Shown: positions 697 to 39,777 of the stretch, piece by piece
Layout of the letters: the number at the start of each line of letters is the position of its first letter
Numbering within the stretch: position 1 is the first letter of the stretch
DNA from: a virus
Taxonomy: Duplodnaviria > Heunggongvirae > Uroviricota > Caudoviricetes
DNA: 64,000 bases
Direction: 5' to 3' (one strand)
IMG/VR virus record: IMGVR_UViG_3300037400_002787
Location: 1 to 64,000 of that record
Position numbers and translations under genes: made by a program
The notes under the pieces: generated by a model
Seen by the model: only the letters and a program-made list of their open reading frames with translations
The model's database searches: none
Told to the model about the DNA's origin: nothing

Positions 697-1926
697 ATGG
701 CACGGAAACTAGCAAGTGTAGTAGAGATTAGCGAAATACTCCCCATAGAGGGAGCGGACAAACTTGAACTTGCCAAGATGAAGGGCAAGGGATGGCAGGT
801 TGTTGTTCAGAAGGGGGAGTTTAATATTGGAGATTTAGCCGTATATGCGGAGATAGATAGTTTTCTCCCGTCTGATGATGACCGCTATGCATTTCTCCGC
901 GAGAGGTGTCTTCGTCGTTTCGTCTCCAAGTCTGGCAATGTCCTCCGTGAGGGCATCAAGATCAAGACCATCAAGTTGCGGGGGCAGATTTCGCAGGGGC
1001 TGCTGATGCCACTCGCCAAGTTCCCGGAGATAACATCGCGCATAATAGAAGGGAAATTCCTAACCTGCACAAAAGATGAATGGCAGAATGAGTTGGACAA
1101 AATCTGTGCGGAAAGCAACGAGCCGTTAGATGTTGTGCCATATGCAAAAGAAGACTACATAGTAGAACTCATCGGTGCGGATGTCACGAAACTCCTCAAG
1201 GTCGAACACTACGACGAGGTGAAGGAGCAGTTGCAGCCAGCGATGGGGAATCCCATCTGTGCTGATGCCCTTGGCAAGTTTCCTTCCGACTATATACCCA
1301 AGACTGACGAAGAGAGAATCCAGAACCTCGGGGACTGGTTCGAGAAGATGAAGGGGAGGGTATGGCAGGTGTCCTGCAAGCATGACGGCACTTCCTGCAC
1401 GATTGCATACTCGAAGATGATTGACGAGGGTAATCCCGAAATAGTGTGCTCTCGCAATCTTAGGCTAAAGCCCGAATCGGCGGATGGCAAGATTCCAGTA
1501 TACTGGCAGATGGCAAAGCAGTACGACATGCTCAATAAACTCAAGGGGCTTTCCGAGAGTATGGGAATAGAGTATGCTGTGCAGGGCGAGATAGTCGGAC
1601 CCGGCATCAACAAATGCAGAAATAAGGAGCAGACATACAAGTTCCTTGTGTTCCGAATCTACGACATCACAAACCAGAAGTTGGTGAATCCTACGGATAC
1701 TGTGCAGATGTGCAAGTCACTTGGTCTTGAGCATGTCCAGATTGTGAAGGACAACTTTGCTTTCTTCGACGAAATCAAGACGATGGACGAGGCATTGAAG
1801 TTCGCTGAGGGCAAGACCGCCGAGGGCAATGAGAGAGAGGGAGTAGTTTTGAAGACGATTGATACGCTTCCGTATGCAAGTTTCAAGATTGTAAGCAACA
1901 AGTACCTGATGAAGCAGGAGGACTGA
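697..1926 (+). CDS. ATP-dependent RNA ligase-like nucleotidyltransferase with N-terminal tRNA-binding (Trbp111/CsaA-like) OB domain
   Basis: N-terminus VVEISEILPIEGADKLELAKMKGKGWQVVVQKGEFNIGDLAVYAEIDSFLP matches the tRNA-binding OB-fold pattern. KxDG adenylation motif CKHDGTSCTIAY follows. SD aaggagaaaaaacaATG. Confidence 0.5.
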   Translation: MARKLASVVEISEILPIEGADKLELAKMKGKGWQVVVQKGEFNIGDLAVYAEIDSFLPSDDDRYAFLRERCLRRFVSKSGNVLREGIKIKTIKLRGQISQGLLMPLAKFPEITSRIIEGKFLTCTKDEWQNELDKICAESNEPLDVVPYAKEDYIVELIGADVTKLLKVEHYDEVKEQLQPAMGNPICADALGKFPSDYIPKTDEERIQNLGDWFEKMKGRVWQVSCKHDGTSCTIAYSKMIDEGNPEIVCSRNLRLKPESADGKIPVYWQMAKQYDMLNKLKGLSESMGIEYAVQGEIVGPGINKCRNKEQTYKFLVFRIYDITNQKLVNPTDTVQMCKSLGLEHVQIVKDNFAFFDEIKTMDEALKFAEGKTAEGNEREGVVLKTIDTLPYASFKIVSNKYLMKQED

Positions 1927-1928
1927 CC

Positions 1929-2225
1929 GTGGGGCAAATGGATTTTGGAGACGCGCTTCGCTGCCTGAAGAAGGGGCTAAAGGTTTGTCGTCAAGGGTGG
2001 CATCATGGGGACAAGTTCCTCTGGCTCAAGCCAGCGGCTACAATCAAAGCCGAGTGGTGCAAGGACGAGAAATTACGGTCCATAGCGGAAGCGAACGGAG
2101 GCGAGATAGATGGTAGACCAGTAATCTGCCTCTACCTGACCATGGATGGTCGTCCGACGATTCTCACAGGGTGGAATCCTCTACCCTGTGATATTCTTGC
2201 AGAGGACTGGATGGTTGTAGACTGA
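1929..2225 (+). CDS. DUF2829-family protein (Tad2-like, candidate anti-Thoeris/anti-signalling sponge)
   Basis: 98 aa. Has FGDALRCLKKGLKVCRQGW and a C-terminal DILAEDWMVVD, as remembered for the DUF2829 profile. Paralog of 3070-3381. Confidence 0.5.
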   Translation: MGQMDFGDALRCLKKGLKVCRQGWHHGDKFLWLKPAATIKAEWCKDEKLRSIAEANGGEIDGRPVICLYLTMDGRPTILTGWNPLPCDILAEDWMVVD

Positions 2226-2278
2226 TTTAGCCGCGACGGGTTTCAATGCCGTTGGGCGAGAACAAAAAAAGGAAAACT

Positions 2279-3052
2279 ATGAAAAGCAAAAAAACAAGCA
2301 ATGGACACCTCCTTCTCACGGAGAAGCAGACGGAGAAACTGGGAAAGATTCTGGCAAAGGCTCTTTCCAAATACGGCCTACGCCAGAAGGACTTTAAGAC
2401 CTTCGATGTCAAGCGGGGGATAGAGATTCTAGAAGAAATCGCCCGAATGCGCAAGGAACTCGAGTCCAAGCATAAAGCAGTTGCTCAGAAGTGCCGCAAG
2501 GACTTCGAGTATTGGAAGAAGTGGCATCTCAATCATGCGAAGAAGGGCAAGAAGGCATTGGGGGAGATGCTCAAGATTCTCTCCAAGTTCGACTCGTATC
2601 AGGTTCAGGGCTTGTGTGATTTCGTTAAGTCTCTCCGTCCCCGCGTGGACTACGGACATCTCTACAAAAGGATGAAAGCCGAGGGCAATGCGTCCTGGGG
2701 AAGCCCGAGCTACATCGTCACCAACGTCCTCAACGGCACAAAGCAGGAACTCGTCTCGAAAAATTCAAAGGCATACAAGGTGATGTCTGCGGCCGTCAAC
2801 AATGCGAAGAAGGCGGTTGCCGACCAAAAACCCGGCAACAGGCTTCTTGGACTGGACGGTGTGGTGAGCGTCAAGGATGGAGACCACTATATCGCATTTG
2901 TCACAGGGGGCAACAATGGTTGCAGCGATTGGGCTACATACTTCAAGAGTCTCATAACCATTGTGAACTCCGTGAAGAAGGGTTGGCTCATCGAAATTGA
3001 AAACGACTGTTGCGACGATGTACACTATGCCTTGATTGGGTTTCGGATTTAA
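2279..3052 (+). CDS. hypothetical protein, basic N-terminus (alternative start 2246)
   Basis: Long ORF between the two DUF2829 paralogs. SD aaaggaaaactATG at 2279. Confidence 0.5.
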   Translation: MKSKKTSNGHLLLTEKQTEKLGKILAKALSKYGLRQKDFKTFDVKRGIEILEEIARMRKELESKHKAVAQKCRKDFEYWKKWHLNHAKKGKKALGEMLKILSKFDSYQVQGLCDFVKSLRPRVDYGHLYKRMKAEGNASWGSPSYIVTNVLNGTKQELVSKNSKAYKVMSAAVNNAKKAVADQKPGNRLLGLDGVVSVKDGDHYIAFVTGGNNGCSDWATYFKSLITIVNSVKKGWLIEIENDCCDDVHYALIGFRI

Positions 3053-3069
3053 TAACAAAGGAGAAAATT

Positions 3070-3381
3070 ATGTTTGGTGATAAAGAAAAAGACTTCTCGG
3101 AAGCACTTAGGCTTCTTAAGGATGGCAAGCGGATTTACCGCAAGGGTTGGAATGGAAACCAGATTTCCTTCGACCCTGCAATGTACATATGGCTAGACAA
3201 GGGCTACACCCTAAAGCGAGGGGATGTAAATACCGAAAATATGGTCAAGGCATTAGGGCGCAACAATCAGATTGAAGTTAGGGCCGCCATTGTGATGAGG
3301 ACTGCAGACGGGAAACTAATTTTGAGCTGGCACCCGACAGCGGATGATGTCCTTGCCAACGACTGGATGGTTGTAGACTAA
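3070..3381 (+). CDS. DUF2829-family protein (Tad2-like), second paralog
   Basis: MFGDKEKDFSEALRLLKDGKRIYRKGWNG ... DVLANDWMVVD. Same N- and C-terminal signature as 1929-2225. SD aaaggagaaaattATG. Confidence 0.5.
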   Translation: MFGDKEKDFSEALRLLKDGKRIYRKGWNGNQISFDPAMYIWLDKGYTLKRGDVNTENMVKALGRNNQIEVRAAIVMRTADGKLILSWHPTADDVLANDWMVVD

Positions 3382-3419
3382 TTTGGTAAAACCAAAAACA
3401 AAACAAAAGGAAAAAAACA

Positions 3420-5030
3420 ATGCACACACTAATGCTCGCCGCAGCAGAAGCGGCATCTAACGGAACGGGATTCACCATTGTGGGTCTTGTTGCTCTCGGA
3501 GTGGCCACTTTGGCCGTAATTGCAGTATTCGCACTTGGATACTGTAAGGCTCCGCCGGACAAGGCATACATCATATCCGGCCTTCGCAAGAGGATTCTTA
3601 TTGGAAAGGCGGGATTCCGCATTCCGTTCTTCGAGCGGCTCGATATTGTCACCCTCGAACTCATTCAGGTTGATGTCAAGACCAAGCAGAAGGTTCCGAA
3701 CAAGGATTTCATTAACGTTAATGTTGATGCGGTCGTAAACATTAAGGTTAGCCGCGAGGAAAGCATGCTCAATCTGGCTGCCATGAACTTCCTCAATGCA
3801 TCGCCCGAATACATTAGCGAAAATGCCAAGGAAGTTCTCGAGGGCAACATGCGCGAGATTGTCGGGGAAATGACCACAAAGGAAATGGTGTTGAACCGGC
3901 AGCAGTTTGCAGAGGCCGTCAAGAAAAATGCGGCCCCCGACTTGGAGAGGATGGGTCTTGAGATTGTATCGTTCAATGTGCAGAACTTCACAGACGACGA
4001 CCATGCAATCGAGAACCTCGGTATCGACAACATCGCCACAATCAGCAAGGATGCGGCCATCGCCCGCGCAAATGCAGAGGCTCAGGTTGAAAAGGCAAGG
4101 GCCAATGCCGCAAAGGAAGCCAATGATGCAAAGGTTGCCGCCGAAACGGAGATTGCTATCCGCAACAACGAACTTGAAATCAAGAAGGCAGACCTGAAGA
4201 AGCAGGCCGACATTCAGATTGCGATTGCTGAAGCAGCAAAGGGTATTCAGGCAGAAGAGCAGAGGAAGATACTTGAAGCAACCTCTGGCGATGCAAGCAT
4301 TATATCGTTGGAGAAGCAGACAGAACTCTCGCAGAGGGAAGTGGCAATCACAGAGAAGAAGCTCGATGCGGAAATTCGCAAGAGGGCGGAAGCGGAGAAA
4401 TTCGCTGCACAGCAGGAAGCGGATGCTAAGCTCTATACTACACAGAAGCAGGCCGAGGCGGAACTTGCAGAGCGAACCCGCAAGGCGGAAGCAACACAGG
4501 TGGAAGCGGAGCGCGAGGCGGATGCTACCAAGGCGGCGGCGGATGCGGCACTCTTCCAGCAGTCAAAGGAGGCGGAAGCCAAGCAGATAGCCGCAGAGAG
4601 GGAGGCTGCTGCAATCAAGGCAATTGCCGATGCCGAGAAGGTGAAGGGTGAGAATGAGGCATTCGTCATCAAAGCCAAGGGCGATGCAGAAGCCGATGCG
4701 ATAAAAGCAAAGGCCCTTGCGGAGGCAGAAGGTCTTGAGAAGAAAGCGGATGCAATGGCGAAGTACGGCGAGGCGGCAAAGATGGACCTCCAGTTGCAGG
4801 TCGCAAAGGAGTTCGTGAAGGTGCTGCCGGCAATCGCAACGGGTGTTGCTTCGGCCTACACTAAGGTAGGCAACATCACGATGTATGGCGACCAGAGCGG
4901 AAAGATTGCATCTGGAGTCATAGACCATACAACACAATTGTTCGACGGTCTCTCAAAGTCTCTTGGATTCGATGTGAAGTCCGCAATCGGCGGAGCCTTG
5001 GCAACAAAGTTGCTTGGCGACAACAAGTAA
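3420..5030 (+). CDS. flotillin-like SPFH/band-7 domain membrane protein
   Basis: N-terminal TM helix, then an SPFH domain (RIPFFERLDIVTLELIQVDVKTKQ...). A long Ala/Glu-rich coiled-coil follows (EA-repeat flotillin region), then a C-terminal conserved tail. Confidence 0.7.
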   Translation: MHTLMLAAAEAASNGTGFTIVGLVALGVATLAVIAVFALGYCKAPPDKAYIISGLRKRILIGKAGFRIPFFERLDIVTLELIQVDVKTKQKVPNKDFINVNVDAVVNIKVSREESMLNLAAMNFLNASPEYISENAKEVLEGNMREIVGEMTTKEMVLNRQQFAEAVKKNAAPDLERMGLEIVSFNVQNFTDDDHAIENLGIDNIATISKDAAIARANAEAQVEKARANAAKEANDAKVAAETEIAIRNNELEIKKADLKKQADIQIAIAEAAKGIQAEEQRKILEATSGDASIISLEKQTELSQREVAITEKKLDAEIRKRAEAEKFAAQQEADAKLYTTQKQAEAELAERTRKAEATQVEAEREADATKAAADAALFQQSKEAEAKQIAAEREAAAIKAIADAEKVKGENEAFVIKAKGDAEADAIKAKALAEAEGLEKKADAMAKYGEAAKMDLQLQVAKEFVKVLPAIATGVASAYTKVGNITMYGDQSGKIASGVIDHTTQLFDGLSKSLGFDVKSAIGGALATKLLGDNK

Positions 5031-5042
5031 TATACCCCCGCA

Positions 5043-5090
5043 CCCTCTCTCTCGTCCAGAGTTGGCGAGGGAGAGGGGCATTTAATTTCT
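5043..5090 (+). terminator. rho-independent terminator
   Basis: Inverted repeat ccctctctctcg...cgagggagaggg, followed by a T-rich tract. Confidence 0.5.
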
Positions 5091-5100
5091 ACCCGAACAA

Positions 5101-5703
5101 ATGGCAACCATACCGGCATCGTTCTTTCAAACCGCCCATGTTCCCACGTACTGCGATTTTGCAAAGAAGGGAACGGTTGTAATATTCGACACGGAGACAA
5201 CGGGTTTCCACGATTCTGATGAGGTAGTGCAATTGGCGGTTGTTGCTGTGAAGGACGGGGAAGAGAAATTCGCTAAAGCCGTATATCTAAAGAATAGGAA
5301 TCCAATAGACGGCACGGAAGCACAGCAGGTCAATGGCATTACGGATGCGATTCTTGCAGAGAAGGGTCTGGAGCCGACTGTGGTATTAAACGATTTCCTC
5401 GCTCTCCTCAAATCAACAATAGAGGAAGAGGGTAGGGTTCTTCTAGTGGCGCATAATCTGGCTTTCGATTGGCGGATGTTGGCGAATATGCTAGAAAGAT
5501 ATGGATGCCAGAACATTCCAACGGGCGTTGTGCCTTGCTGCACTTTGGAATTCGTGAAGTCACTCTGCCTGCCAAAGACCATTCTACCGAGAAACAAACT
5601 TAGCACCTGCATAGAGGTCTTCGGACTTTCCGCACGAAATTCGCATGATGCTCTAGACGATGCAAGGGCTTGTCTTGAACTTTTTAGATTTCTAACCGCC
5701 TAA
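5101..5703 (+). CDS. DEDDh 3'-5' exonuclease (DnaQ/epsilon-like)
   Basis: Exo I VIFDTETTG, Exo II HNLAFDWRML, Exo III HDALDDARACLEL. Confidence 0.75.
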   Translation: MATIPASFFQTAHVPTYCDFAKKGTVVIFDTETTGFHDSDEVVQLAVVAVKDGEEKFAKAVYLKNRNPIDGTEAQQVNGITDAILAEKGLEPTVVLNDFLALLKSTIEEEGRVLLVAHNLAFDWRMLANMLERYGCQNIPTGVVPCCTLEFVKSLCLPKTILPRNKLSTCIEVFGLSARNSHDALDDARACLELFRFLTA

Positions 5704-5708
5704 CCCCC

Positions 5709-5738
5709 TTGCAAACTGACACCCGTTTATGATATAAT
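5709..5738 (+). promoter_or_regulatory. sigma70-type phage promoter
   Basis: ccccTTGCAAactgac, N18, TGATATAAT. Confidence 0.65.
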
Positions 5739-5798
5739 ATATTCGTCAAAAGGAGAATATCAAAGACAAAGACAACAATCCAAGAAAGAGAAGTACTT

Positions 5799-5987
5799 AT
5801 GACGAGGAATAAGATATTTTCGACAATAGCTCAGGTGTTGCTAATAGTTGTGGGGATGGTTCCAATCGCTCTATGTTTCGGTTTCCTAGCGGAAGACCCG
5901 CAGAGGTATGTGCACAACCTTTTTGTAGTTGGAATCTACGGACTTCTCTTCGGTCTTGTATCTCTTGTATTGTCCTTGGTGGATTAA
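5799..5987 (+). CDS. small membrane protein (2 TM)
   Basis: Hydrophobic 62-aa ORF downstream of the promoter. Confidence 0.45.
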   Translation: MTRNKIFSTIAQVLLIVVGMVPIALCFGFLAEDPQRYVHNLFVVGIYGLLFGLVSLVLSLVD

Positions 5988-6002
5988 AAGGTGAGCGGTA
6001 CA

Positions 6003-6527
6003 ATGGCAGACGATATGGACATAGAACTTCCTCTTGTAAAGGTAAGCAAAGAGGATGTGTATGGCGCATTGTTTGTCCATACGAACAATATGGGAGAACT
6101 ATACCACGATTCCCTAATGAAGCTCCAGACATGGATAATGACCTATGCAGAGGATGTGGTAAAGCCACTTAGGGAATCCGGTAAATTCACTGACGAATAC
6201 ATAGATTCCCTAAAGAGGAAGACTTGTGTAATATCTCCTTTGACACTTACGCTCTATCTGCACTGGCTACAGATGGAGCAGTTCTCCAAGATGCCCGACT
6301 CGCAGAAGGAGAAGATTCTGCTGGAGAAGTTGCCGGATAGGTTTAGGGCAAGATACAAAGGAAATGCAGCCTGTAGAAATGCAAGAGAGGTTTCGCCGGA
6401 CGAAGAGACAATTGGAGAAGATGGGCAGAGTGAAACGGAGGTTGTAGCCCACAAGAGGCGGATGACGTTTGTGGAGTTTCTAAAAGAGTTTGGCGAGGAA
6501 GTAAAACAAAACAAAACAAGAGGATAG
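6003..6527 (+). CDS. hypothetical protein
   Basis: ATG 6003 in-frame within ORF 5991-6527. Acidic protein. Confidence 0.5.
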   Translation: MADDMDIELPLVKVSKEDVYGALFVHTNNMGELYHDSLMKLQTWIMTYAEDVVKPLRESGKFTDEYIDSLKRKTCVISPLTLTLYLHWLQMEQFSKMPDSQKEKILLEKLPDRFRARYKGNAACRNAREVSPDEETIGEDGQSETEVVAHKRRMTFVEFLKEFGEEVKQNKTRG

Positions 6528-6533
6528 GTGAGT

Positions 6534-6839
6534 ATGGGCGAGAACGACAATGTAAATAGAAAGTTCCTTCTCAAAAACGGACGGCAGACCATCGACTACA
6601 TCGACGATGCCGGCCTACTACTTGGATTCTGCATTGGAAGGGCGGTCCAATGTCGGTACAAGGCGGGAGTTGAGTCTGACAGAACCAAGCAGGAGAAGTT
6701 GATGAAAGACTGCAACTGGTACATCGACTGCCTTGCGCGAAGGAAGAATATGGTACGGGAGGAAATCGTTGCCATAGTCAAGTCCATAGTGGGCAAGATG
6801 GAGAAGGATAGGATAGTCACGGAGGTGGCGAATGGGTAA
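6534..6839 (+). CDS. DUF3310-like phage protein
   Basis: AVQCRYKAGVESDRTKQEKLMKDCNWYIDCL resembles the A.KY..R.G.......dL.KA.WY motif of the DUF3310 phage family. Confidence 0.4.
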   Translation: MGENDNVNRKFLLKNGRQTIDYIDDAGLLLGFCIGRAVQCRYKAGVESDRTKQEKLMKDCNWYIDCLARRKNMVREEIVAIVKSIVGKMEKDRIVTEVANG

Positions 6840-7611
6840 AGAGATTGACAATTTTGGAATAGTCCGCACTGATGTACTGCAGTTTGGAGTAGAGGGCGAG
6901 TTCTATATGATACTCGTACTTCGCCGCCGTAAGGATGTTAAGGGCAAGGTCGTCGAAGGAGTGAATGAGGATAACCGTCTAATTAAGCACTTCTTTGTAT
7001 ACGACAAGGAATACTTATATCGCAAGAAGGATGCTATAATTGCCCTATGCAAGCAGAACAATGCGAGGGCATACATACTCCCGCAAAGGAGAAGCCACGA
7101 TATAATAATGTGGGCTCTCCACAACAAGACGGGTGAGGTGTTGAAGAGCGGTGCCAAGAACACACATTTCGACCATTTGATTAGGAGTTGCGTTGCGGGC
7201 ATACACGAAGTACCGCCGAATGCGAAGTGGCACAAGAGGTGGGTAATAGACATAGATAGCGATGACGATGAGACAATGTATATTGCCAGTGGATGGGGGC
7301 GAGTTGAGAGTGGCGATGGAGTAATTGAAAAACTAAGCACCTACTTGGCGGACAAGATTCGCAAAGCATTAGTCTTGGCATATAGAAATCGGAGCGAAGA
7401 AGCGAAAGAGTTTATGCCTGAAATTAGCGGCAACTACAAGGAAGAAGATATAACACTGCTTCCTACACCTCATGGGTTTCATATAGTAACACCACCTTTC
7501 AATAGAGAGGAAAAGGCTATGAAGAAATACTTTGGATTTGCGATACCCAGTAGTTGGATTAAGCCCGATACAATGGCATTGCTATATGCACCCGAAACAA
7601 TAGGAGAATAA
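6832..7611 (+). CDS. hypothetical protein
   Basis: 259-aa ORF. Start overlaps the upstream stop (ATGGGTAAAG). Confidence 0.5.
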   Translation: MGKEIDNFGIVRTDVLQFGVEGEFYMILVLRRRKDVKGKVVEGVNEDNRLIKHFFVYDKEYLYRKKDAIIALCKQNNARAYILPQRRSHDIIMWALHNKTGEVLKSGAKNTHFDHLIRSCVAGIHEVPPNAKWHKRWVIDIDSDDDETMYIASGWGRVESGDGVIEKLSTYLADKIRKALVLAYRNRSEEAKEFMPEISGNYKEEDITLLPTPHGFHIVTPPFNREEKAMKKYFGFAIPSSWIKPDTMALLYAPETIGE

Positions 7612-7615
7612 AATC

Positions 7616-8119
7616 GTGAAGAAAGCATACATCGTTACTTATATAAACGACAAGGAAGGAATCAACCGCCAATTGATGCAAGAGCAGTTGCAGACGATTG
7701 GCGCATACAAGGAACTATCCCATGCCGCACGAACGGCATCGTGGATGATTATACCAGATGACGAGGCGGCGAATGCTTCCGCGATAAAAAATAAACTGTT
7801 CTCCGCTCTTAAGCCATTTGAGGATAGCATTAGTGTTGTTCGGATTGATGCTAATGATGCAGCGGGTGTAAATTGTCTTGATACAAAAGAGTTTCTAGAG
7901 AAATGCAAAGTAGAAAGTAGCGATGAGCCACGGAACTTCGAGCGGTTTAGGACTAAACACGAAGCATTCCTGCAGTATGAACTAGAAAAGCCTAGGTGGG
8001 TCTATGAGGATGGTATAGGGGCGGCGATTTTAGTAGAGTTTGACGAATGGTGCTGGCTTCCCATAAGGAAGGACGGCATATATGACAAGCGGAAATATCA
8101 ATCGTACATATATAGTTAA
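7616..8119 (+). CDS. hypothetical protein (GTG start)
   Basis: ggagaataaaatcGTG. 167-aa ORF. Confidence 0.45.
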   Translation: MKKAYIVTYINDKEGINRQLMQEQLQTIGAYKELSHAARTASWMIIPDDEAANASAIKNKLFSALKPFEDSISVVRIDANDAAGVNCLDTKEFLEKCKVESSDEPRNFERFRTKHEAFLQYELEKPRWVYEDGIGAAILVEFDEWCWLPIRKDGIYDKRKYQSYIYS

Positions 8120-8130
8120 GGAGATAGAAA

Positions 8131-8331
8131 ATGCCACACAAAGTTGAGGGCGGATGGAAATGGGGCAACATAGAGCGGGACACCAAGGGCGAACTCGTAA
8201 AGGTTGTCTACGGCATCTGGCAGAAGAACGGAGCCAAGGGGAAGTTCGAGGACTTCTGGGAGACCGGAAAGACAACTGGCACGGCAACAAAGGATTCCGC
8301 GGCGGAACTTAAAGCATATCTAGAACAGTAA
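8131..8331 (+). CDS. hypothetical small protein
   Basis: SD aaggagatagaaaATG. Confidence 0.5.
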   Translation: MPHKVEGGWKWGNIERDTKGELVKVVYGIWQKNGAKGKFEDFWETGKTTGTATKDSAAELKAYLEQ

Positions 8332-9760: not shown

Positions 9761-10366
9761 ATGGCTGACTTTCAGAACAAAAGAGATTGCGACACGCTCG
9801 TAGTCAATCTGTACGGCGGACCAGGTACGGGCAAGTCTACAGGCGCAGGCATAATAACAGGACTACTCAAGGCAAACGGAATTGACGCAGAGTATGTCTC
9901 GGAGGTTGCTAAGGACAAGGTTTGGGAGGAGAATCGAGCAGCCCTTTCCAATCAAGCATACATGTTCGGAAGCCAATACTACAGAATTTCCCGTGTGATG
10001 GGCAAGGTGGATGTCATTGTCACCGACAGTCCTTTGTTGCTTACCTTCATCTACAACCATGATGATTGTCTCGGCAATGCTTTTAATGCCGTTGCCCTCA
10101 ATGTTGCGACCTCTTACAATACATTGGAAGTGTTGCTGGAGCGGACAAAGAAATACAACCCGAACGGACGCATGCAGACAGAAGCGGAATCAGATTCGAT
10201 AACCAAGACCATCAAGGGAATACTCGATAGGTTTCGCGGCAACTACATGAAGGCGACGGGTGACATCTCTGGATATTGGGAGGTGTTCAAGGAAATCGCA
10301 AGGCGTCTGAACCGATTCGACATAATTGCGCAGACGAACGAGAAACTAAAGACGCTCTCGATGTAG
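9761..10366 (+). CDS. P-loop kinase (AAA_33/zeta-toxin-like), possible polynucleotide kinase
   Basis: Walker A GGPGTGKST, Walker B-like VIVTDSP. Sits beside the metallophosphoesterase. Confidence 0.5.
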   Translation: MADFQNKRDCDTLVVNLYGGPGTGKSTGAGIITGLLKANGIDAEYVSEVAKDKVWEENRAALSNQAYMFGSQYYRISRVMGKVDVIVTDSPLLLTFIYNHDDCLGNAFNAVALNVATSYNTLEVLLERTKKYNPNGRMQTEAESDSITKTIKGILDRFRGNYMKATGDISGYWEVFKEIARRLNRFDIIAQTNEKLKTLSM

Positions 10367-10432
10367 AGACGATTATAGAAAGTGAGCGAGAAAACCCAAT
10401 CCCTTAAGTGTAAAGGCAAGCAAAAAAAATAT

Positions 10433-11224
10433 ATGAAGATAGCCATAATATCCGACATTCACGGCAACCCGACCGCTCTACAGAAAGTCCTGAAGGACGC
10501 AGAGGAGCGCAAGTGTGAACGCATAGTCTGCCTTGGCGACATAGTTGGCTATGGCTATGACCCTAATGCATGCATTGACATAGTTAGAAATCGCAACATA
10601 GAGTGCTTCCTTGGAAACCATGACGCAGGGCTGATAGGAAAACTCTCTCTCAACTGGTTCAACGGGTTCGCTAAGAACGCGATACTGCGCCAGCGTCCGC
10701 TGGTGACGGAAGACAACAAGAAGTGGCTGGAATCGCTGCCGTATACAAAGGTCGAAGGTGCAGAAGACGAATTCGCATACGCCTTCACACATGGCGAATT
10801 GATGAATCCAGAAAACTTCGACTATATCCAAGGCTACAGCGACGCGGTGTATGAAACCCATTACATGAAGGAGAAGAAGATTGAAGTCCTGTTCATCGGG
10901 CACACGCATTGCGCTAATATCTTCTTCCTCGGCGACGACTACCGAATCAGCGAGACATTCATAGACTTGGAAGACGAAGCGGGGTACGACCTTTCGCGGT
11001 ACGAGAAATCTATCGTTAATGTCGGCAGCTGCGGATACCCACGGAATCAGCCGTACATCATCTATGGCATCTACGAAACAACCACCCACGAATTCTACCA
11101 TCGCATCATGCCTTTTGACTTTGATGACTATTTGGAAAACATGAAGAAAAAAGGTGCTGCGATCCCCTTGTGGATAGAGGACAGAATATCCGAAGCGCAT
11201 ATGCACCCTGTTATGTTCAAGTAG
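10433..11224 (+). CDS. calcineurin-like metallophosphoesterase
   Basis: Motifs DIHGN, GDIVGYG, GNHD, GHTH. Confidence 0.7.
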   Translation: MKIAIISDIHGNPTALQKVLKDAEERKCERIVCLGDIVGYGYDPNACIDIVRNRNIECFLGNHDAGLIGKLSLNWFNGFAKNAILRQRPLVTEDNKKWLESLPYTKVEGAEDEFAYAFTHGELMNPENFDYIQGYSDAVYETHYMKEKKIEVLFIGHTHCANIFFLGDDYRISETFIDLEDEAGYDLSRYEKSIVNVGSCGYPRNQPYIIYGIYETTTHEFYHRIMPFDFDDYLENMKKKGAAIPLWIEDRISEAHMHPVMFK

Positions 11225-19619: not shown

Positions 19620-20456
19620 ATGACAACACGAAGAGAGATTATCAAGTCTGGCATCGGTCTGGCAGGCATCATTGCGGCAGGCAAAGCCCCTGCTGCCATA
19701 GTCAGGTCGCTCGTGGGTGCGGCAGGCACTAAGTATCTCGAAGACGGCAGCGGAATCCCCGAGAACCCTACTGCCGCCGACTATATTCGGGAAAACATCT
19801 TGGCGATGTGGGACGGCATTGAAAATGTTGGTTGGGGAGAACATGACAACGACTCAGCCATCTGGAAGGACTTGGCAGGCAATTATGATTTAGGACTTTA
19901 TGGCGATTGTGTTTGGTCGGAAGATAAGATAACCTTCTCTTCGTCTGTGAATTCATACTGCAAGCGGCAGGGGCAATTTAGCCCTTATTCAATAAAAACT
20001 GTCGAGGTCGTGCTGTTGCCTGTCCAACTGGCTTCTAACAATAATAGTTATATTGTCTTGGCTTATAATGGCTGGAATGGTTCTTTTGGATTGGCACGAC
20101 AAGGGGAAACTTTTATCACTGGAGCACAAACCAACTATTCGTTTTCTGCCGCAGGCTACGACCTTACAATACCGCATACCATCTCATATACGGGAGATAA
20201 CCATGGTGGAACCCGCAGTTTCTATATAGATGGATTGCCGGCACCACAAGCCTCAAGACCTAACTTTAGTATTGACTGGGAAGGAAGAAGGACAACCCCT
20301 CCCGATGGATCTGGAATCCTGTTCAATTCTAATTGGGTACATCAACAGGGGTATGACTTGTATGCCGTCAGGGTTCACTCACAAAAATTGACCGACAAGG
20401 AAATCCGCTACAACTACCTCATAGACCAGATGAGGTTTGGACTGCCCACAACTTAA
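19620..20456 (+). CDS. secreted LamG-like protein with twin-arginine signal, type B
   Basis: MTTRREIIKSGIGLAGIIAAG Tat motif. C-terminus VRVHSQKLTDKEIRYNYLIDQMRFG. Confidence 0.55.
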   Translation: MTTRREIIKSGIGLAGIIAAGKAPAAIVRSLVGAAGTKYLEDGSGIPENPTAADYIRENILAMWDGIENVGWGEHDNDSAIWKDLAGNYDLGLYGDCVWSEDKITFSSSVNSYCKRQGQFSPYSIKTVEVVLLPVQLASNNNSYIVLAYNGWNGSFGLARQGETFITGAQTNYSFSAAGYDLTIPHTISYTGDNHGGTRSFYIDGLPAPQASRPNFSIDWEGRRTTPPDGSGILFNSNWVHQQGYDLYAVRVHSQKLTDKEIRYNYLIDQMRFGLPTT

Positions 20457-20468
20457 GGAATGATACTT

Positions 20469-21227
20469 ATGAAGAAGATACTTGCCATAGTCTTCGCCCT
20501 CTGTGTCGGGATTGCATTTGCTGCTCCGATTAGGTCTATGCTTGCCTCTAGGGGCGAGGAATTTGTGGAGTCCGAGAAAGATCCGCCATATCCGCTTCCC
20601 GACGGTGTTGTTGCCGTGGAATATCTTCAAGGTGATGGAGCAAGCGGCATTCTCGTACCCTATAATATCAGAAATCAATATGGTACTATTTCTCTTGCAT
20701 ACTACAACACTGATTACACAAAATCTAGTTATGTTTTTGGACAAAGGTTGATTGGTGGAGCAAATAATTTTGCTTTTACACTGCAACATAACCGCAATCA
20801 AAATAGACTTTTTAGACAATATTCTCAATTCTTTGTGAATCCTTATAATGGTGGTAGTCAATGGTATTCCTCCTTAGAAAATGGACAGTTGACCAAACTG
20901 TTCACCTACAGCCTGGACATTAGCACGAAGACCGCTACATGGTACAACGGTTCCGAGACGGTATTGACCAGTAGCGACTTCCCTGAATCCTCAAATCTGG
21001 GAGTCTTTGGGGTGGCAAATGCTGCAGGAAACGGATTCTATTCATACGGTGTGATTAAGTTGCTGTATTTCAAGATAGAACAAGATGGAGTTATGGTTTA
21101 TGACCTAATTCCTGTCCGCTTCCTCAACGAAGACGGTATTTGGGAGGGGGCGATGTACGACCTCGTTTCCGAAGAACTTTTCCTCAACCAAGGCACGGGC
21201 TCTTTCATCATCGGACCAGACCTCTAG
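20469..21227 (+). CDS. secreted protein, paralog family type A
   Basis: Signal peptide, post-signal PIRSMLAS. C-terminus DLIPVRFLNEDGIWEGAMYDLVSEELFLNQGTGSFIIGPDL. Confidence 0.55.
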   Translation: MKKILAIVFALCVGIAFAAPIRSMLASRGEEFVESEKDPPYPLPDGVVAVEYLQGDGASGILVPYNIRNQYGTISLAYYNTDYTKSSYVFGQRLIGGANNFAFTLQHNRNQNRLFRQYSQFFVNPYNGGSQWYSSLENGQLTKLFTYSLDISTKTATWYNGSETVLTSSDFPESSNLGVFGVANAAGNGFYSYGVIKLLYFKIEQDGVMVYDLIPVRFLNEDGIWEGAMYDLVSEELFLNQGTGSFIIGPDL

Positions 21228-21233
21228 CCCCTA

Positions 21234-21665
21234 ATGCCCCGCCCCCGCTCCATCTCCCCTCTAACCCAGACGGTCAAACTGTGTTTATCCGTCCTTCTCT
21301 CCCTCTCCACTGGCTGCATGAACCTCTATACCCGCTGCCCAGGCACTAAGCCCAAAATCTCCCGCTGCTACCAGTCCACTAAAGCTATGGCTTCCATCTC
21401 CTACTCCCTCGCCTTCCCTCAAACACTCGACGGACACGACCCCTCCTTCTCACTCGATAACCTCGGCACTATACCTTTCGCTCTAATCTGCTGTCTCGAT
21501 ACCGCCTGCGAAGCCGTACTTGATACCGTTTTCCTCCCGTTCGACTATTTCGTCGCCCGCTACCGCAACAAAACCTTCGCCGCCCCCGTCCACTGCCCAC
21601 CCTATTCCCCGCTCCCCATCTCCCCAACCCCAACCTCCCAAGCAGCATCGTCATGTTTGATGTAA
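21234..21665 (+). CDS. hypothetical Pro/Ser-rich protein with atypical C-ending codon usage
   Basis: Strong third-position C periodicity (ccC cgC tcC atC ...) supports this frame as coding, despite odd composition. Confidence 0.4.
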   Translation: MPRPRSISPLTQTVKLCLSVLLSLSTGCMNLYTRCPGTKPKISRCYQSTKAMASISYSLAFPQTLDGHDPSFSLDNLGTIPFALICCLDTACEAVLDTVFLPFDYFVARYRNKTFAAPVHCPPYSPLPISPTPTSQAASSCLM

Positions 21666-21847
21666 TCAAATTTCTTCTAGGCAGAAGCACTTGCCGCAAA
21701 TGCATATATCGCAGGCTCTGGGGTCTATACTGCGGATTCCCCTGTGCAAAGGAAGCCATCTTCCCTGCTAGTGCTTGGCAAAAGTGGGGCTGCTAGCACT
21801 ACACTAAACGACCCTATGCGCCCCTAACCGACCCTAATTGTCAAAAA

Positions 21848-22330
21848 ATGTCCCCCATGCCCCGCGAAAACAAAGAGCAAACAGTTCTCCGCCTCATCGA
21901 CGAATGCCGCAGATACGACCTCCACGGTCTCGACTTCATTCTCTCCATTCCACTCAAAGACCTCGTTGCCTCCTATAACGGAATCGGCCCCGACTCCTTC
22001 CCCAAGCCCATCTGCAAAGCCCTCGACCGCCTCTCACCAGAACTCCGCTGCTGCGCCCTCATACACGATGCCCGCTTCTCCTTCGGCGACGGCTCCCTCG
22101 AATGGTTCATGATGGCAAACGACGAGTTCGAATACAACGGACTTCTCATCGCCAATACCGTCTGCCGCTGGTACAATCCCCGTCGCTACATACTTCGCCA
22201 CCGCGTCCGGGTCTATGCCGCCGCCTGCCGCATCTTCGGCTGGGATTCCTTTGTCGCCTGCTATTCAACGAAAGCTAGGTCAACAAATCCCGATTTGGCG
22301 GACTTTTGTTTTTTTCCAAAAAAAAATTAA
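21848..22330 (+). CDS. hypothetical protein with atypical C-ending codon usage; CCxxxHD motif (possible PLA2-like)
   Basis: Codon third positions strongly C. Motif CCALIHDARF. Confidence 0.45.
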   Translation: MSPMPRENKEQTVLRLIDECRRYDLHGLDFILSIPLKDLVASYNGIGPDSFPKPICKALDRLSPELRCCALIHDARFSFGDGSLEWFMMANDEFEYNGLLIANTVCRWYNPRRYILRHRVRVYAAACRIFGWDSFVACYSTKARSTNPDLADFCFFPKKN

Positions 22331-31799: not shown

Positions 31800-33280
31800 G
31801 CAATAAGTAGATGAAGTCAGACGAGACCAGGAAGTGCGGATGTTCCGCAGAGAGGCGGCAGAAGGTAAAGGAAAGCCGCAAAGCCACCGCCATCAGGAGG
31901 CGGGGGCAGATGGGTTTCGTCTACGAGTGCAAGATAGTGGAGAGTCGGCTCAACAAGAGGCAGATGGAGGAACTTGAGCGGCTTTTCGTGGAGGGGAAGT
32001 GGTTCTACAACCATGTCTTGTCGCTCCATAGGGAAGGTGTGGGGTTGGGGGAGATTAATGCCACTGCCGTCAAGGAGGTGGGAAGGTTTGACAGGAACCA
32101 CGAGAAGAAGACAGAAAAACTTCAAGTGCTGACCGCTCAGGAGCGGCAGGGGATAATCGCCAGAATGGCCGCCAACGAGAAGACGATATCTGCCCTGGCG
32201 AAGAAGGGGTTGCAGGGAGGCGGGGAGTTGCATTTCCTGTCGGAGATGACGTGCATACCGCTGAAGCAGTACGGTGTGACATACAAGTTCAAGACGCCGA
32301 ACAAGGTGCGGATAGGGGGAATTAGCGGGAGTGTGCTGGTGCGGACTGGCGGACAGTTGGAAGGGGTGGACGAACTGGCGAATGCCAACCTCGTGCATAG
32401 GGCGGACGGCTACTTCCTCAAGGTCACGGGCTTCACAAACATAGAGAATCTAAAACAAACGGAAACGAACGGAAAGGAGATAGGGCTTGATTTTGGAATC
32501 AAGACCAGTGTGACGACATCGGAAGGCGAGAAGATTGACGTGCTAGTTGGAGAAAGCGAACGGCTCAAGCGGCTGCAGAAGGAACTATTCCGCAGGGCAA
32601 AGGGTTCGAACAACAGGTACAGGACAATCAAGAGGATTCGCCGCGAATACCAGAGACTGACGAACAGAAAAACCGACATGGCCAACAAAATTGTCTCGAA
32701 ACTGAAGAAATACAACACGATAGTGATGCAGGACGAGATGATTGTCGGGTGGCACAGGGGACTCTTCGGGAAGCAAGTCCAGCACAGTTGTCTAGGAATC
32801 CTGAAAGAAAAACTCATAAGGCTTCCGCAGACGATAGTGCTCGCCCGTGGAATCCCCACGACCAAGATGTGCCCCGTGTGCAAGACCGTGAACAGGTACG
32901 TCACCCTTGCGGACAGGACGTACAGGTGCGGTTGCGGCTACACCCAAGACCGCGACCTCCATGCCGCAAGGAACATGCTCGTCGTCAAGAATATGGTCTT
33001 TGGAAACAATTTGGAAAAACTACCGCTGGGACGGCGGAAAGTCACGCTCACAGAGTTCCGCACCTCTATCGGAGATGTAACAGTCTCCGACAAGCCGGAA
33101 CGCAGAAGTGGGAAGATGCCATGTCTTTAGCATGGCATAGAGTTCACAGCGGATTCTTCTAGAGAAGCAACTTATTGCAATGGATAAATATGCAACTATT
33201 CTTTTCGCTCGCATAAACCTTGCGGTTGGCGAATATTCTAAAAATAGAGACAAGAATCCATTAATGAGGAGTTCACTATG
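31800..33280 (+). mobile_element. IS200/605-family TnpB-only element 1 (boundaries approximate)
   Basis: Contains the tnpB gene. The 3' flank 33131-33277 is non-coding and would carry the omega/reRNA and RE. Confidence 0.5.
31910..33130 (+). CDS. tnpB: TnpB (OMEGA RNA-guided RuvC-like nuclease)
   Basis: RuvC-I IGLDFGIKT, RuvC-II region VMQDEMIV. C-terminal Zn finger plus RuvC-III CPVCKTVNRY...CGCGYTQDRDLHAARNM. Confidence 0.8.
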   Translation: MGFVYECKIVESRLNKRQMEELERLFVEGKWFYNHVLSLHREGVGLGEINATAVKEVGRFDRNHEKKTEKLQVLTAQERQGIIARMAANEKTISALAKKGLQGGGELHFLSEMTCIPLKQYGVTYKFKTPNKVRIGGISGSVLVRTGGQLEGVDELANANLVHRADGYFLKVTGFTNIENLKQTETNGKEIGLDFGIKTSVTTSEGEKIDVLVGESERLKRLQKELFRRAKGSNNRYRTIKRIRREYQRLTNRKTDMANKIVSKLKKYNTIVMQDEMIVGWHRGLFGKQVQHSCLGILKEKLIRLPQTIVLARGIPTTKMCPVCKTVNRYVTLADRTYRCGCGYTQDRDLHAARNMLVVKNMVFGNNLEKLPLGRRKVTLTEFRTSIGDVTVSDKPERRSGKMPCL

Positions 33281-34535: not shown

Positions 34536-35771
34536 ATGAAACTCAATCCGATAATCAATAGCCTACTTGAAACCGACCAGTACAAGTTTTCGATGGGGCA
34601 GACTATCTACCACCAGTTCAACAAGGATGTGACTACCTGGGCTTTCAAGTGTCGTAACAAGAATGTTGTATTCACACCCGAGATGGTGCAGGAGATTCGG
34701 GAGCAGATTGCTCATTTCTGCACCCTTAGGTTCAAGGAGGAAGAACTGGAATGGATGAAGAATACAATTCCTTGGCTTAGCGGTGACTACATTTCGCATC
34801 TCCGTAGGTGGTATCCTAGGCGGGAGCAGATTTTTGTAGACGATGGAGAGATTACACGGAATTGTGAGCCGTGCGGTATGAGAATTACCGCTACAGGAGA
34901 ATGGCTCGACACTTCCATGTACGAGATACCTATTCTCGCTATTGTAAATGAGGTGTATTTCGCTTTCAAGTATGGTGCAGGAGCCCTAAATCGTGCTGCA
35001 CAGGATAGGTTTGAGAAGAAACTGTCCATGATGAAGAATGGATACTATGCCATTGGATGCTTCTCGGAGTTTGGTATGAGGAGAAGGTATTCCGCCCAGA
35101 TGCAGGATTGGATTGTGGGTAGCCTAGCACACTTCGGTACATCTTTCAACACCTTTGTCGGTACTTCCAATGTCTACCTTGCGAAAAAGCACGGAGTCAA
35201 GCCTGTGGGGACGATGGCACATGAGTTTATCCAAGTTGTGGGACAGGCTCACCACGAGCACAATCCCGCCTACTCCAATCACTATATGATGAAGGCTTGG
35301 GTCAAGGAATACGAGACTGATAATGGCATTGCACTCACGGACACCATTACGACAGACTGCTTCCTTCGGGACTTCAACAAGACCTATGCCACACTTTTTA
35401 GCGGTGTGAGGCACGATTCCAACGACCCGTTTGTGTGGGGCGAGAAAATGATTGCTCACTACAAGAAACTTGGCATCGACCCAATGACCAAGACACTCTT
35501 GTTCTCGGATAGCCTTGACTTTAACAAGGCAACACAGATTCGTAATTATTTTAGCGGCAAGGCAAGAGTTGCATTCGGCATCGGGACATACATTGCGAAC
35601 GACACAGGCAAGGAGCCGCTTAATATAGTGATGAAGGTGATAGAAGCGAATGGCTCACCGGTTGCAAAACTTTCCGATATTGATGGCAAGGGTATGTGCC
35701 GTGATATTGCTTATGTAGACTACCTCCGCCGCACAATCGACTGGCGTCTCGCACACGAGAAGGAGGTGTAA
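34536..35771 (+). CDS. pncB: nicotinate phosphoribosyltransferase
   Basis: LLETDQYKFSMGQ (LLDTDAYKLHMQQ), VGTMAHEFIQ, GIALTDTITTDCFLRDF, GVRHDSNDPFVWGEKMIAHYKKLGIDP, NIVMKVIEANGSPVAKLSD. Near colinear with E. coli PncB. Confidence 0.9.
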   Translation: MKLNPIINSLLETDQYKFSMGQTIYHQFNKDVTTWAFKCRNKNVVFTPEMVQEIREQIAHFCTLRFKEEELEWMKNTIPWLSGDYISHLRRWYPRREQIFVDDGEITRNCEPCGMRITATGEWLDTSMYEIPILAIVNEVYFAFKYGAGALNRAAQDRFEKKLSMMKNGYYAIGCFSEFGMRRRYSAQMQDWIVGSLAHFGTSFNTFVGTSNVYLAKKHGVKPVGTMAHEFIQVVGQAHHEHNPAYSNHYMMKAWVKEYETDNGIALTDTITTDCFLRDFNKTYATLFSGVRHDSNDPFVWGEKMIAHYKKLGIDPMTKTLLFSDSLDFNKATQIRNYFSGKARVAFGIGTYIANDTGKEPLNIVMKVIEANGSPVAKLSDIDGKGMCRDIAYVDYLRRTIDWRLAHEKEV

Positions 35772-35825: not shown

Positions 35826-35853
35826 TTGCATCTTCCACAAAGATATGATACAA
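35826..35853 (+). promoter_or_regulatory. possible promoter for tnpB-2
   Basis: TTGCAT, N16, TGATACAAT. ATG 8 nt downstream. Confidence 0.35.
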
Positions 35854-35861
35854 TACAACCA

Positions 35862-37115
35862 ATGTTGAGAGGAATCCCGATACGTGTGTACCCGAACGAT
35901 GAGCAGAGAGCCTACATAAGTAGGCTCTTGGGCTGTTGTCGTTATGTGTACAACCATCTGCTTGCATTCCAGGAGAAGTTGTTCCTTGAAGAGAAGAGGG
36001 GTGCGAAGCAGTCGGAGATTACAGAATTCTACAATGAAGAGAAAACTCAGAACCAGTTTCTTCGCGAAGTCCACAGCAAAGTGCTTCAACAGTCCCGAAT
36101 AGACTTGCAGACGGCATGGGGAAACTACTTCAAGAGCCTAAAGAAGTCTAGCGGCAAGAAAGCGAACAAACCGATCTACCATAAGAAGGGCATCAAGGAA
36201 TCTTGTAGATTTCCCGTAGATGCTTTCATCGGCATCAGGGGCAACCGAATATCCATCATCAAGCCGTTGCGGGACATGCATTTCAAGTGCAGCAGACGGG
36301 ACGAGCGGTACTTGAACAAACACCAAGACGAAGTGAAGAGCATAACCCTGCGGAAGACGGGCGGTGGTAGGTATTACTGCTCCGTGCTAATAGATGACCG
36401 CCGCATACGGCCGTTGCCAAAGGAAGAGAAAGATGTAGGCATAGACCTAGGTGTGAAGGATTCTGCAATAACATCAGATGGGGACAAGTTCGAGAATCCC
36501 AAGGCATTGGCAAAGGTGGAGAAGCAGATAAAGAGGTGGGAGAGAATCAAGTCCCGTCGAGAGAGGGGAAGCAATAGGCGGAGAATGGCGGTAGCGAGAG
36601 TGTCCCGTCTGCACGAAAGGGCTTCCAACATACGAAAGGATTTCCAGCACAAGGCGACGACCCGAATAGTCCGCGAAAACCAAGCGGTCTATGTCGAAGA
36701 CCTCAATGTGGCTGGTATGATGAAGAACCACAAACTGGCAAAGGCGGTGGCAGATTCCTCTATGAGTGGATTAGTCCGAATGCTGGAGTACAAGTGCAAG
36801 TGGTACGGACGGGAACTGGTGAAGGTTGACAGATGGTATGCCAGCAGCCAGACCTGTTCGTGCTGCGGGTACAAGAACTCCGAGGTGAAGAACCTCAAAG
36901 TCAGGGAGTGGGTATGTCCCAAGTGCGGTAAGCATCACGACCGCGATGTGAATGCGGCTGTGAATGTGCTACATGAGGGGCGGAGAATCAGAGAGAATAA
37001 GGTAGGGCTGAGTTCGCCCGAACCTAACGCTCGTGGACAGGGCAACGGGGGAGTTTCCATGCCGCAAGGTGCGGAGACAGCCGTTCTGGACGAAGCGAGA
37101 AAGGAATGTGCCTAA
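35862..37115 (+). CDS. tnpB: TnpB (OMEGA RNA-guided RuvC-like nuclease)
   Basis: N-terminus [15 protein letters not shown], Ruv[12 protein letters not shown], Ruv[17 protein letters not shown]. Zn finger CSCCGY...CPKCG, Ruv[15 protein letters not shown]. Confidence 0.85.
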
Positions 37116-39751: not shown

Positions 39752-39777
39752 CAAAAACTCCAAAAAGGAACTTAGAA

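Follow-up and report, generated by a model that had tools for sequence, protein, structure and literature searches.

A gene on the plus strand of a 64,000-nucleotide stretch of viral DNA (the window; positions 1 to 64,000 of IMG/VR virus record IMGVR_UViG_3300037400_002787, Caudoviricetes) encodes what is close to certain to be a flotillin with all of the parts that define that family (positions 3420-5030). Comparison with viral and cellular relatives indicates that the ancestor of a clade of jumbo phages captured this gene from a bacterial host lineage, and that the phage copy is old, functional and constrained like the cellular one. Flotillins are widespread in bacteria, where their essential role is debated and has been placed in membrane fluidity, scaffolding or protease control. 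The overall reading that we favour, by a modest degree, is that phages of this clade keep a host-captured flotillin as an auxiliary gene for maintenance or dosage of a host function.

A flotillin in sequence and predicted fold

Several comparisons place the protein within the flotillins. The Pfam Band_7 model (PF01145) scores 85.3 bits over residues 47-221, well clear of its cut-off of 23.6, and the NCBIfam FloT model NF058507 covers residues 53-392 at 224.3 bits. As the equivalog cut-off of the latter is 700 bits, the protein is, by the NCBI rule, a flotillin and not a FloT orthologue. The Flot model (PF15975) matches residues 422-489 marginally, at 28.6 bits against a cut-off of 27, and independent support for this region comes from a phmmer search of all PDB sequences, which returned only flotillin-1 and flotillin-2 (E ~1e-42, ~26% identity). 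The alignment runs in two stretches, one spanning the SPFH domain and coiled coil (residues 45-350) and the other the C terminus (residues 402-514), the latter matching the flotillin-1 C terminus with an i-Evalue of 1.2e-7. Residues 222-450, which consist of 27% alanine, 16% glutamate and 13% lysine (62% when glutamine is included), align with the coiled-coil region of flotillin-1 in the same search. PHROG offers a weak match to a family named lipoprotein (phrog_200, 24 bits).

An AlphaFold2 model built with 25 homologues as input (mean predicted local distance difference test score, pLDDT, 68.8) places a helix at residues 20-39 ahead of an alpha/beta domain that spans 41-192. Next come two very long helices (196-286 and 294-445), and the helices predicted at the C terminus have low confidence. 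The best four Foldseek matches are chains of flotillin complexes, headed by 9L3G and 9BQ2 (E 1e-19 to 3e-16), and stomatin, HflK/C, prohibitin and erlin follow well behind, at 2.5e-11 or weaker; the protein is thus nearer to flotillins than to any of these other families. Only one segment exceeds 1.6 on the Kyte-Doolittle scale, at residues ~18-39 (2.7 over 19 residues). This single hydrophobic helix is the predicted N-terminal membrane attachment expected of a flotillin.

An earlier note, made from the sequence alone, had described a full-length flotillin with a transmembrane anchor, SPFH domain, coiled coil and conserved C-terminal tail. All four parts were found, and Pfam, NCBIfam, the PDB search and Foldseek agree in placing the protein among flotillins, not with the non-SPFH proteins that the note had named as the outcome that would tell against it. 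The coiled coil that it put at about 250 residues is present, with a length of ~230-250 residues according to where its boundaries are drawn.

A resident of phage genomes

We compared the locus with those of seven relatives, three on IMG/VR contigs (L001-L003) and four on ENA/Logan contigs (L174-L176 and L178). All seven keep, in whole or in part, one gene order, in which NrdD is followed at some distance by an RNA ligase, a Tad2-like (Thoeris anti-defence 2-like) gene, the flotillin and an exonuclease, and then, further on, by a dUTPase. The neighbours vary among these phages, whereas the flotillin is constant. The RNA ligase holds the same position in L001-L003, L175, L176 and L178, and a Tad2-like gene lies just 5' of the flotillin in L175 and L176 (by Pfam) and in L001-L003 (by tblastn with the Tad2-like open reading frames (ORFs) of the window). 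Directly 3' of the flotillin, L174 and L178 have an RNase_T-type gene (by Pfam), and exonuclease homologues were found downstream in L001 and L002 (by tblastn). Two of the IMG/VR relatives sit on contigs of 224 and 252 kb, and the largest recorded contigs for relatives P0021 and P0023 reach 276 kb and 270 kb, respectively.

In the window itself, nearly all long ORFs are on the plus strand and phage genes lie on both sides of the flotillin. The earlier note had allowed that the region might prove to be host DNA at a prophage border; this is rejected because the gene lies deep in phage DNA and has the same syntenic phage setting in the seven related viral contigs. Searches with the RNA ligase, both by itself and as an alignment, aimed at close relatives lacking flotillin, returned only the same three IMG/VR contigs together with unrelated phages at 42% identity.

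Origin in gut bacteria

A scan of one genome per GTDB species showed that all matches above 60% identity belong to metagenome-assembled genomes (MAGs) of the Planctomycetes-Verrucomicrobia-Chlamydiae (PVC) group, namely Verrucomicrobia UBA3761, Kiritimatiellae/Kiritimatiellia and Lentisphaerae, and the record titles of these MAGs point to ruminant and horse gut. Flotillins of Ruminococcus, Acetatifactor and other Firmicutes come next, at 48-56%. The closest cellular homologues are 82-89% identical in full-length pairwise alignments, and up to 91% on well-aligned columns; for the bacterial protein P0022, the two figures are 89% and 90%. As these homologues lie on the chromosomes of bacteria known from Kiritimatiellae, Lentisphaerae and Verrucomicrobia MAGs, the phage gene appears to be host-derived. 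Their surroundings are those of bacterial chromosomes: at one locus (L013) MgsA precedes the flotillin and DNA polymerase III delta (HolA) follows it, at another (L015) prephenate dehydrogenase adjoins it, and the genes around it are MutS, RsmA and thiamine genes at the P0033 locus and an MFS transporter, QueF and ClpB at the P0022 locus.

In a neighbour-joining tree, the main phage clade of 29 tips has bacterial P0022 as its sister, and phage P0031 falls just outside that pair, so that phage and host flotillins appear interleaved. From these similarities, the probable host is a gut bacterium of the PVC group, of Kiritimatiellae / Lentisphaerae type.

An old gene under cellular constraint

Substitution rates were estimated by the Nei-Gojobori method. 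Between the window flotillin and those of L001-L003 and L174-L176, amino acid identity is 0.87-0.91 and the proportion of synonymous sites that differ (pS) is 0.62-0.74; for L001-L003, pS is 0.62-0.65, its nonsynonymous equivalent (pN) is 0.06-0.07, and the ratio of nonsynonymous to synonymous rates (dN/dS) is ~0.05. The most distant relative, L178, has an identity of 0.84 and a pS of 0.81. Flanking genes mostly show amino acid identities of 0.33-0.81, with exceptions at 0.90-0.92 for the ORF at 8131-8331 and for Tad2a against L003. Recent transfer would account for a gene with ~90% identity beside neighbours with ~60%, and was rejected because synonymous sites are near saturation. Against the bacterial copies, the window flotillin has a pS of 0.70-0.76 and a nucleotide identity of 74-76%. 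GC content at third codon positions (GC3) is 0.77-0.93 in the bacterial flotillins, 0.44-0.76 in the phage copies and 0.606 in the window copy; this last value is only ~0.8 standard deviations above the window mean, and we rejected the idea of a compositional island.

Constraint is also similar domain by domain. Identity in the SPFH domain is 0.91 between phages, 0.92 between bacteria and 0.88 between phages and bacteria, and the corresponding values for the coiled coil are 0.87, 0.88 and 0.85. The C-terminal region is 95% identical among phage copies. The anchor is poorly conserved in sequence (40-52% identity), and its hydrophobic character is retained in phage and bacterial homologues alike. 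Across the window and its seven relatives, no residue is shared by all eight phage copies and missing from all of the five bacterial ones. Near-saturated pS, a dN/dS of ~0.05 and the lack of any phage-specific residue together indicate that the phage gene is a working flotillin held under cellular constraints, with purifying selection as strong as on the bacterial copies.

Repeated capture by large phages

Flotillin matches occur in 8 of 50,697 deposited phage records, one of which (csAssE-Sib, OR575929.1) is already annotated as a 'flotillin family protein'. In IMG/VR, two exact heptapeptide patterns alone recovered at least 107 contigs with flotillin. Of the 80 IMG/VR loci retained, 50 come from contigs at least 100 kb long, and gene density is phage-like in nearly all cases. 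The earlier note had called flotillin unusual phage cargo, which holds for deposited records but not for IMG/VR, and even among the former one case had already been named.

Grouped at 75% identity, the 96 phage-like loci form 25 flotillin clades. Clades from phages other than those of the window clade match flotillins of Lachnospiraceae, Acetatifactor or Verrucomicrobia at 70-81% identity. On trees labelled by genomic context, parsimony gives 13 switches between phage and bacterium (11-16 across bootstraps), and conservative labels give 8 (7-10 across bootstraps); shuffled labels would require ~28. Large gut phages thus appear to have captured flotillin repeatedly, with at least about 8 switches, counts that are to be read with the caveat that IMG/VR may contain errors.

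SPFH ORFs have been noted in phages since 2006: in the T4-like phages 44RR, Aeh1 and RB43 (PMC1524935), in RaK2-like jumbo phages as SPFH-domain proteins (PMC7760394), in Crassvirales (bioRxiv 10.64898/2026.08.21.746148) and in GIB1 (PMC13239085). Our literature search found no paper on full-length phage flotillins, on their host-like sequence or on their repeated capture, only genome notes in which function is unclear. What is new here is the PVC-group origin, the age and constraint of the gene, and the number of phage clades that carry a flotillin.

A possible role in maintaining the host membrane

The proposed mechanism begins with the N-terminal helix, which would anchor the phage flotillin in the cytoplasmic membrane, as in solved flotillins and HflK/C. 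The coiled coil and C terminus would then assemble it into a large cage that fences off a patch of membrane; the flotillin-1/2 complex is a barrel of 44 subunits, or 22 heterodimers, joined by coiled coils and C termini (PMC11260169). The phage protein has 82-89% full-length identity to the cellular version and therefore probably co-assembles with host flotillin or replaces it. Expression from the non-structural part of the phage genome would keep up or raise flotillin dosage as host expression declines, and sustained dosage would keep the membrane ordered, and its proteins or proteases in homeostasis, through a long infection. This logic would be shared with other host-derived phage genes that maintain host function. 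Taken by itself, the functional part of this proposal seems to us plausible at somewhat below even chances.

Several points weigh against capture and maintenance as we have framed them. The Flot-domain score barely clears its cut-off, and AlphaFold2 modelled the C-terminal part with low confidence. Most labels of phage and bacterium come from a gene-density heuristic, and the tree is neighbour-joining, not maximum likelihood. The presumed host is uncultured and is assigned solely from the similarity of the flotillin gene itself, and the GC content of 58-67% at the bacterial loci, compared with 48% in the phage, is a large gap for a phage and its host. Close homologues of a TnpB-like ORF in the window (35826-37115) gave no independent evidence of the host, and at least one of them sits on a 276-kb contig, equal in size to the largest flotillin contig of the phage clade. 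Finally, the statement that the gene maintains host function is an argument from constraint, silent on which flotillin function counts.

In phage lambda, CII is under the control of HflK/C and FtsH, and CIII is an inhibitor of FtsH. A flotillin cage that captures or stabilises the host membrane AAA+ protease FtsH or another membrane protease, and so alters the turnover of membrane proteins of phage or host, much like HflK/C with FtsH in lambda, is a specific version of the maintenance proposal and not a true alternative to it, and we regard it as possible at a low probability. HflK/C-FtsH cages are among the structural matches (7WI3 and 9CZ2, by Foldseek), and in Bacillus subtilis, an excess of flotillin makes FtsH more stable, stimulates it and changes how cells divide (PMC3892786). 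However, no FtsH-related gene adjoins the flotillin in the window or in the scanned flanking genes of other phage clades, and the evidence that links flotillin to FtsH comes entirely from Firmicutes, a group to which the presumed host, a PVC bacterium, does not belong. Rather unlikely is a wider reading in which flotillin is a recurrent membrane-control module that large gut phages have acquired convergently. Extra flotillin cages would then keep the inner membrane sealed and energised, or sequester FtsH or pore-forming suicide effectors, through a long latency; flotillin would count as a counter-defence or lysis-timing factor of a new class, and infection by phages would offer a selectable phenotype for bacterial flotillins. 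A counter-defence role proper, in which the protein shields the membrane from depolarising or perforating abortive-infection effectors or diverts, as a decoy, some host system that senses flotillin or makes use of it, is unlikely. Its appeal lies in the genomic setting: the window and five of its seven relatives have a Tad2-like anti-Thoeris gene, in one or two copies, directly ahead of the flotillin, an unrelated flotillin contig (L168) has a Tad2-like domain two genes upstream (seen by eye, unscored), and the window holds an RNA ligase and NAMPT-like and NAD-synthetase-like genes. Salvage of nicotinamide adenine dinucleotide (NAD) and RNA-ligase functions are used elsewhere against NAD-depleting and tRNA-cutting defences. 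Additionally, YdjI, an SPFH protein of Bacillus, was found to co-purify with PspA and with a CBASS cyclase (bioRxiv 10.1101/2023.09.29.560134). Yet the Tad2 adjacency is missing in L174 and L178, and what recurs beside the flotillin in nine other clades is a phosphoesterase, a kinase and a PhoH/PIN protein. The flotillin matches no PADLOC-DB v2 model out of 5,027 at E 0.01 or better, our literature search found no paper tying SPFH proteins to antiphage systems, and there are no phage-specific substitutions, although divergence from the working protein would be expected of a decoy or inhibitor. The decoy idea raised in the earlier note therefore finds no backing.

The remaining explanations are less probable still. 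Flotillin patches might, in line with the earlier note, gather phage membrane machinery as a platform for replication or assembly, or the protein might be packaged, given that mass spectrometry found SPFH-domain proteins in the virions of RaK2-like jumbo phages (PMC7760394). We consider this distinctly improbable, as the gene lies among genes for nucleotide metabolism, RNA repair and replication, no structural gene was recognised in the 64 kb, and the absence of phage-specific residues speaks against a new phage-specific partner. That the flotillin is not a phage gene, or not a functional one, would be suggested by its strong similarity to bacterial chromosomal genes, and would make it host DNA at a prophage border, a product of chimeric assembly or a decaying passenger. 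This explanation was rejected and is the least probable of all: phage genes on one strand flank both sides across the 64 kb, the gene occupies the same position in seven independent assemblies, nucleotide identity to the bacterial copies is just 74-76% with synonymous sites saturated, GC3 is unremarkable, and dN/dS is ~0.05.

Comparison with known systems

The nearest counterparts are the chromosomal flotillins of gut PVC bacteria (DFGB01000067.1, JAFUDL010000285.1 and CAMKJU010000050.1; P0022, P0026 and P0033), which are 82-89% identical to the phage copy in the same domain order and share with it ~30 extra residues in the coiled coil as well as the constraint on each domain. They differ in the sequence of the N-terminal anchor and in setting, lying among housekeeping genes at 58-67% GC whereas the phage copy lies among phage genes at 48%. 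FloT (YuaG) of B. subtilis shares the anchor, SPFH domain, EA-rich coiled coil and C-terminal region with the phage protein. The floT gene is paired with the NfeD gene yuaF. In contrast to such SPFH-NfeD operon pairs (YuaF-FloT and QmcA-YbbJ), no NfeD partner was found among the scanned genes adjacent to the phage flotillin.

Human flotillin-1 and flotillin-2 (9BQ2 and 9L3G) give the best PDB match in both sequence and fold, over the SPFH domain, coiled coil and C terminus. They form heteromers and use lipidation and a hydrophobic SPFH1 surface, whereas the phage protein has a predicted transmembrane helix and is encoded by a single gene. The HflK/HflC-FtsH complex of E. coli (7WI3 and 9CZ2) is likewise built as an SPFH cage, has a transmembrane helix at the N terminus and is classically tied to phage biology, but the match is much weaker (E ~1e-8 to 1e-11, 15-18% identity, ~290 aligned columns), and HflK/HflC have a shorter coiled coil and lack the Flot domain.

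Earlier phage cases come from large lytic phages, with function given as unknown throughout. The published ones are known as SPFH/Band 7-domain matches only (one of them an SPFH-like lipoprotein), and none of the earlier SPFH or flotillin cases has been shown to be a near-copy of a host flotillin; the csAssE-Sib protein, for example, has only 24% identity to the window flotillin over residues 16-201. A closer analogy may be psbA of cyanophages, a near-copy of a host gene that is under strong purifying selection, has been acquired repeatedly and is thought to maintain host function. In its case the metabolic role is defined and expression has been measured, and this defined role would set psbA apart from the phage flotillin.

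The significance of these findings is at present that of a pattern in comparative genomics. Repeated capture from hosts of different phyla, combined with tight constraint, would imply that flotillin dosage matters for phage yield, and phage yield may in turn provide a route to a flotillin phenotype. A membrane-scaffold gene would join the list of host functions carried by big phages. Additionally, a flotillin that is nearly identical to that of the host may serve as a marker for predicting the hosts of uncultured jumbo phages.

Genomic setting

The flotillin lies in a non-structural part of the genome, devoted to nucleotide metabolism, RNA repair and anti-defence, and has no constant partner (Table 1). 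Beyond its immediate neighbours, PHROG and Pfam identify in the window a dUTPase, a kinase, a metallophosphatase, HNH endonucleases, a DnaB-like helicase and a sliding clamp. Among 30 window ORFs compared with PHROG, no capsid, tail or terminase gene was found, nor was any structural gene recognised in the 64-kb window, and the structural module would therefore lie outside it. A megablast search of window positions 1-25000 against the 50,697 phage records gave no match, and a protein search with the DnaB-like helicase gave matches at 29% identity or below only; from these two results, the phage appears to have no cultured relative.

Table 1. Positions in the window of the flotillin gene, its parts and its flanking features
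Feature	Position	Strand	Basis or remark
Phage RNA ligase, upstream anchor of syntenic block	697..1926	+	phrog_968, E 3.6e-79
Second Tad2-like gene	1929..2225	+	Pfam PF11195, 62.2 bits
268-aa ORF between the two Tad2-like genes	2246-3052	+	No family named
Tad2-like gene directly 5' of flotillin	3070..3381	+	Pfam PF11195, 70.5 bits
Shine-Dalgarno-like AAGGA, 8 nt ahead of ATG	3407..3411	+	Read from sequence
Flotillin gene, 536 aa plus stop	3420..5030	+	Pfam Band_7 and Flot, NCBIfam FloT, PDB, Foldseek
N-terminal membrane anchor, residues ~18-39	3471..3536	+	Hydropathy; helix 20-39 in model
SPFH / Band 7 domain, residues 47-221	3558..4082	+	Pfam PF01145; alpha/beta in model
Ala/Glu/Lys-rich coiled-coil hairpin, residues 222-450	4083..4769	+	Composition; two long helices modelled
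C-terminal (Flot) region, residues 451-536	4770..5027	+	Pfam PF15975 at 422-489; flotillin-1 C-terminus alignment
GC-rich terminator-like hairpin, 13 nt after stop	5043..5077	+	14-bp stem
RNase_T-type 3'-5' exonuclease directly 3' of flotillin	5101..5703	+	Pfam PF00929, 76 bits; phrog_192

The hairpin that follows the gene is part of a longer fold spanning stop+10 to stop+50, with a free energy of -30.6 kcal/mol. A hairpin of -23 to -31 kcal/mol begins 3-11 nt past the flotillin stop in all eight phage sequences; its stems are unrelated in sequence from phage to phage, and its position and strength are kept. The flotillin gene thus probably closes a transcription unit.

Genes for NfeD, PspA or an FtsH-type or other protease partner were not found by Pfam in window positions 1929-3381 and 5101-8119 or among 10 flanking genes in other phages, and no NfeD gene lies beside the bacterial homologues, whose flanks hold MgsA, HolA, prephenate dehydrogenase and others. 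The genes that recur beside the flotillin in nine other phage clades encode a calcineurin-like phosphoesterase, an AAA_33 kinase and a PhoH/PIN protein. RNA-repair-type genes, comprising an RNA ligase, a P-loop kinase and a calcineurin-like phosphoesterase, occur near the flotillin in the window (697-1926, 9761-10366 and 10382-11224, plus strand) and adjoin it in L102, L103, L163 and L166, a pattern that extends across the nine other flotillin-carrying clades. These shared neighbours may reflect a deeper common module.

In the largest flotillin-carrying clade, which comprises ~27 human-gut viral contigs of ~160 kb, the flotillin is followed by an ORF of 182 residues (7467-8015 in L128, plus strand) that combines a transmembrane segment at the N terminus with a helical region that is long and charged. 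By eye it resembles PspA, a candidate identity that we dropped when Pfam gave no match.

The NAMPT-like gene (phrog_448) and the NAD-synthetase-like gene (phrog_11189) lie at 34536-35771 and 39529-41016 on the plus strand and could together form a phage NAD-salvage pathway, of a kind reported for gut jumbo phages (PMC11662467). Two TnpB / OrfB_IS605-like ORFs (phrog_506) are found at 31811-33130 and 35826-37115, also on the plus strand, and TnpB-like ORFs adjoin or neighbour the flotillin in L174 and L175.

The 66-residue ORF at 8131-8331 (plus strand) is 0.91-0.92 identical in amino acids to its counterparts in L001 and L002, with a dN/dS of 0.02-0.04, and its neighbours are far more divergent. 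The only negative GC skew in the window (-0.18) falls at 20001-22000. Two ORFs in 19620-21227 (plus strand) begin with a twin-arginine translocation (TAT)-like signal (RREIIKSGIGLAGIIAAG) and a signal-peptide-like sequence, and their products may be secreted. The NrdD genes of L174 (464-2155) and L175 (718-2904) are split by homing-endonuclease-type domains (Hom_end_hint and GIY-YIG), which suggests that they are interrupted by inteins or introns.

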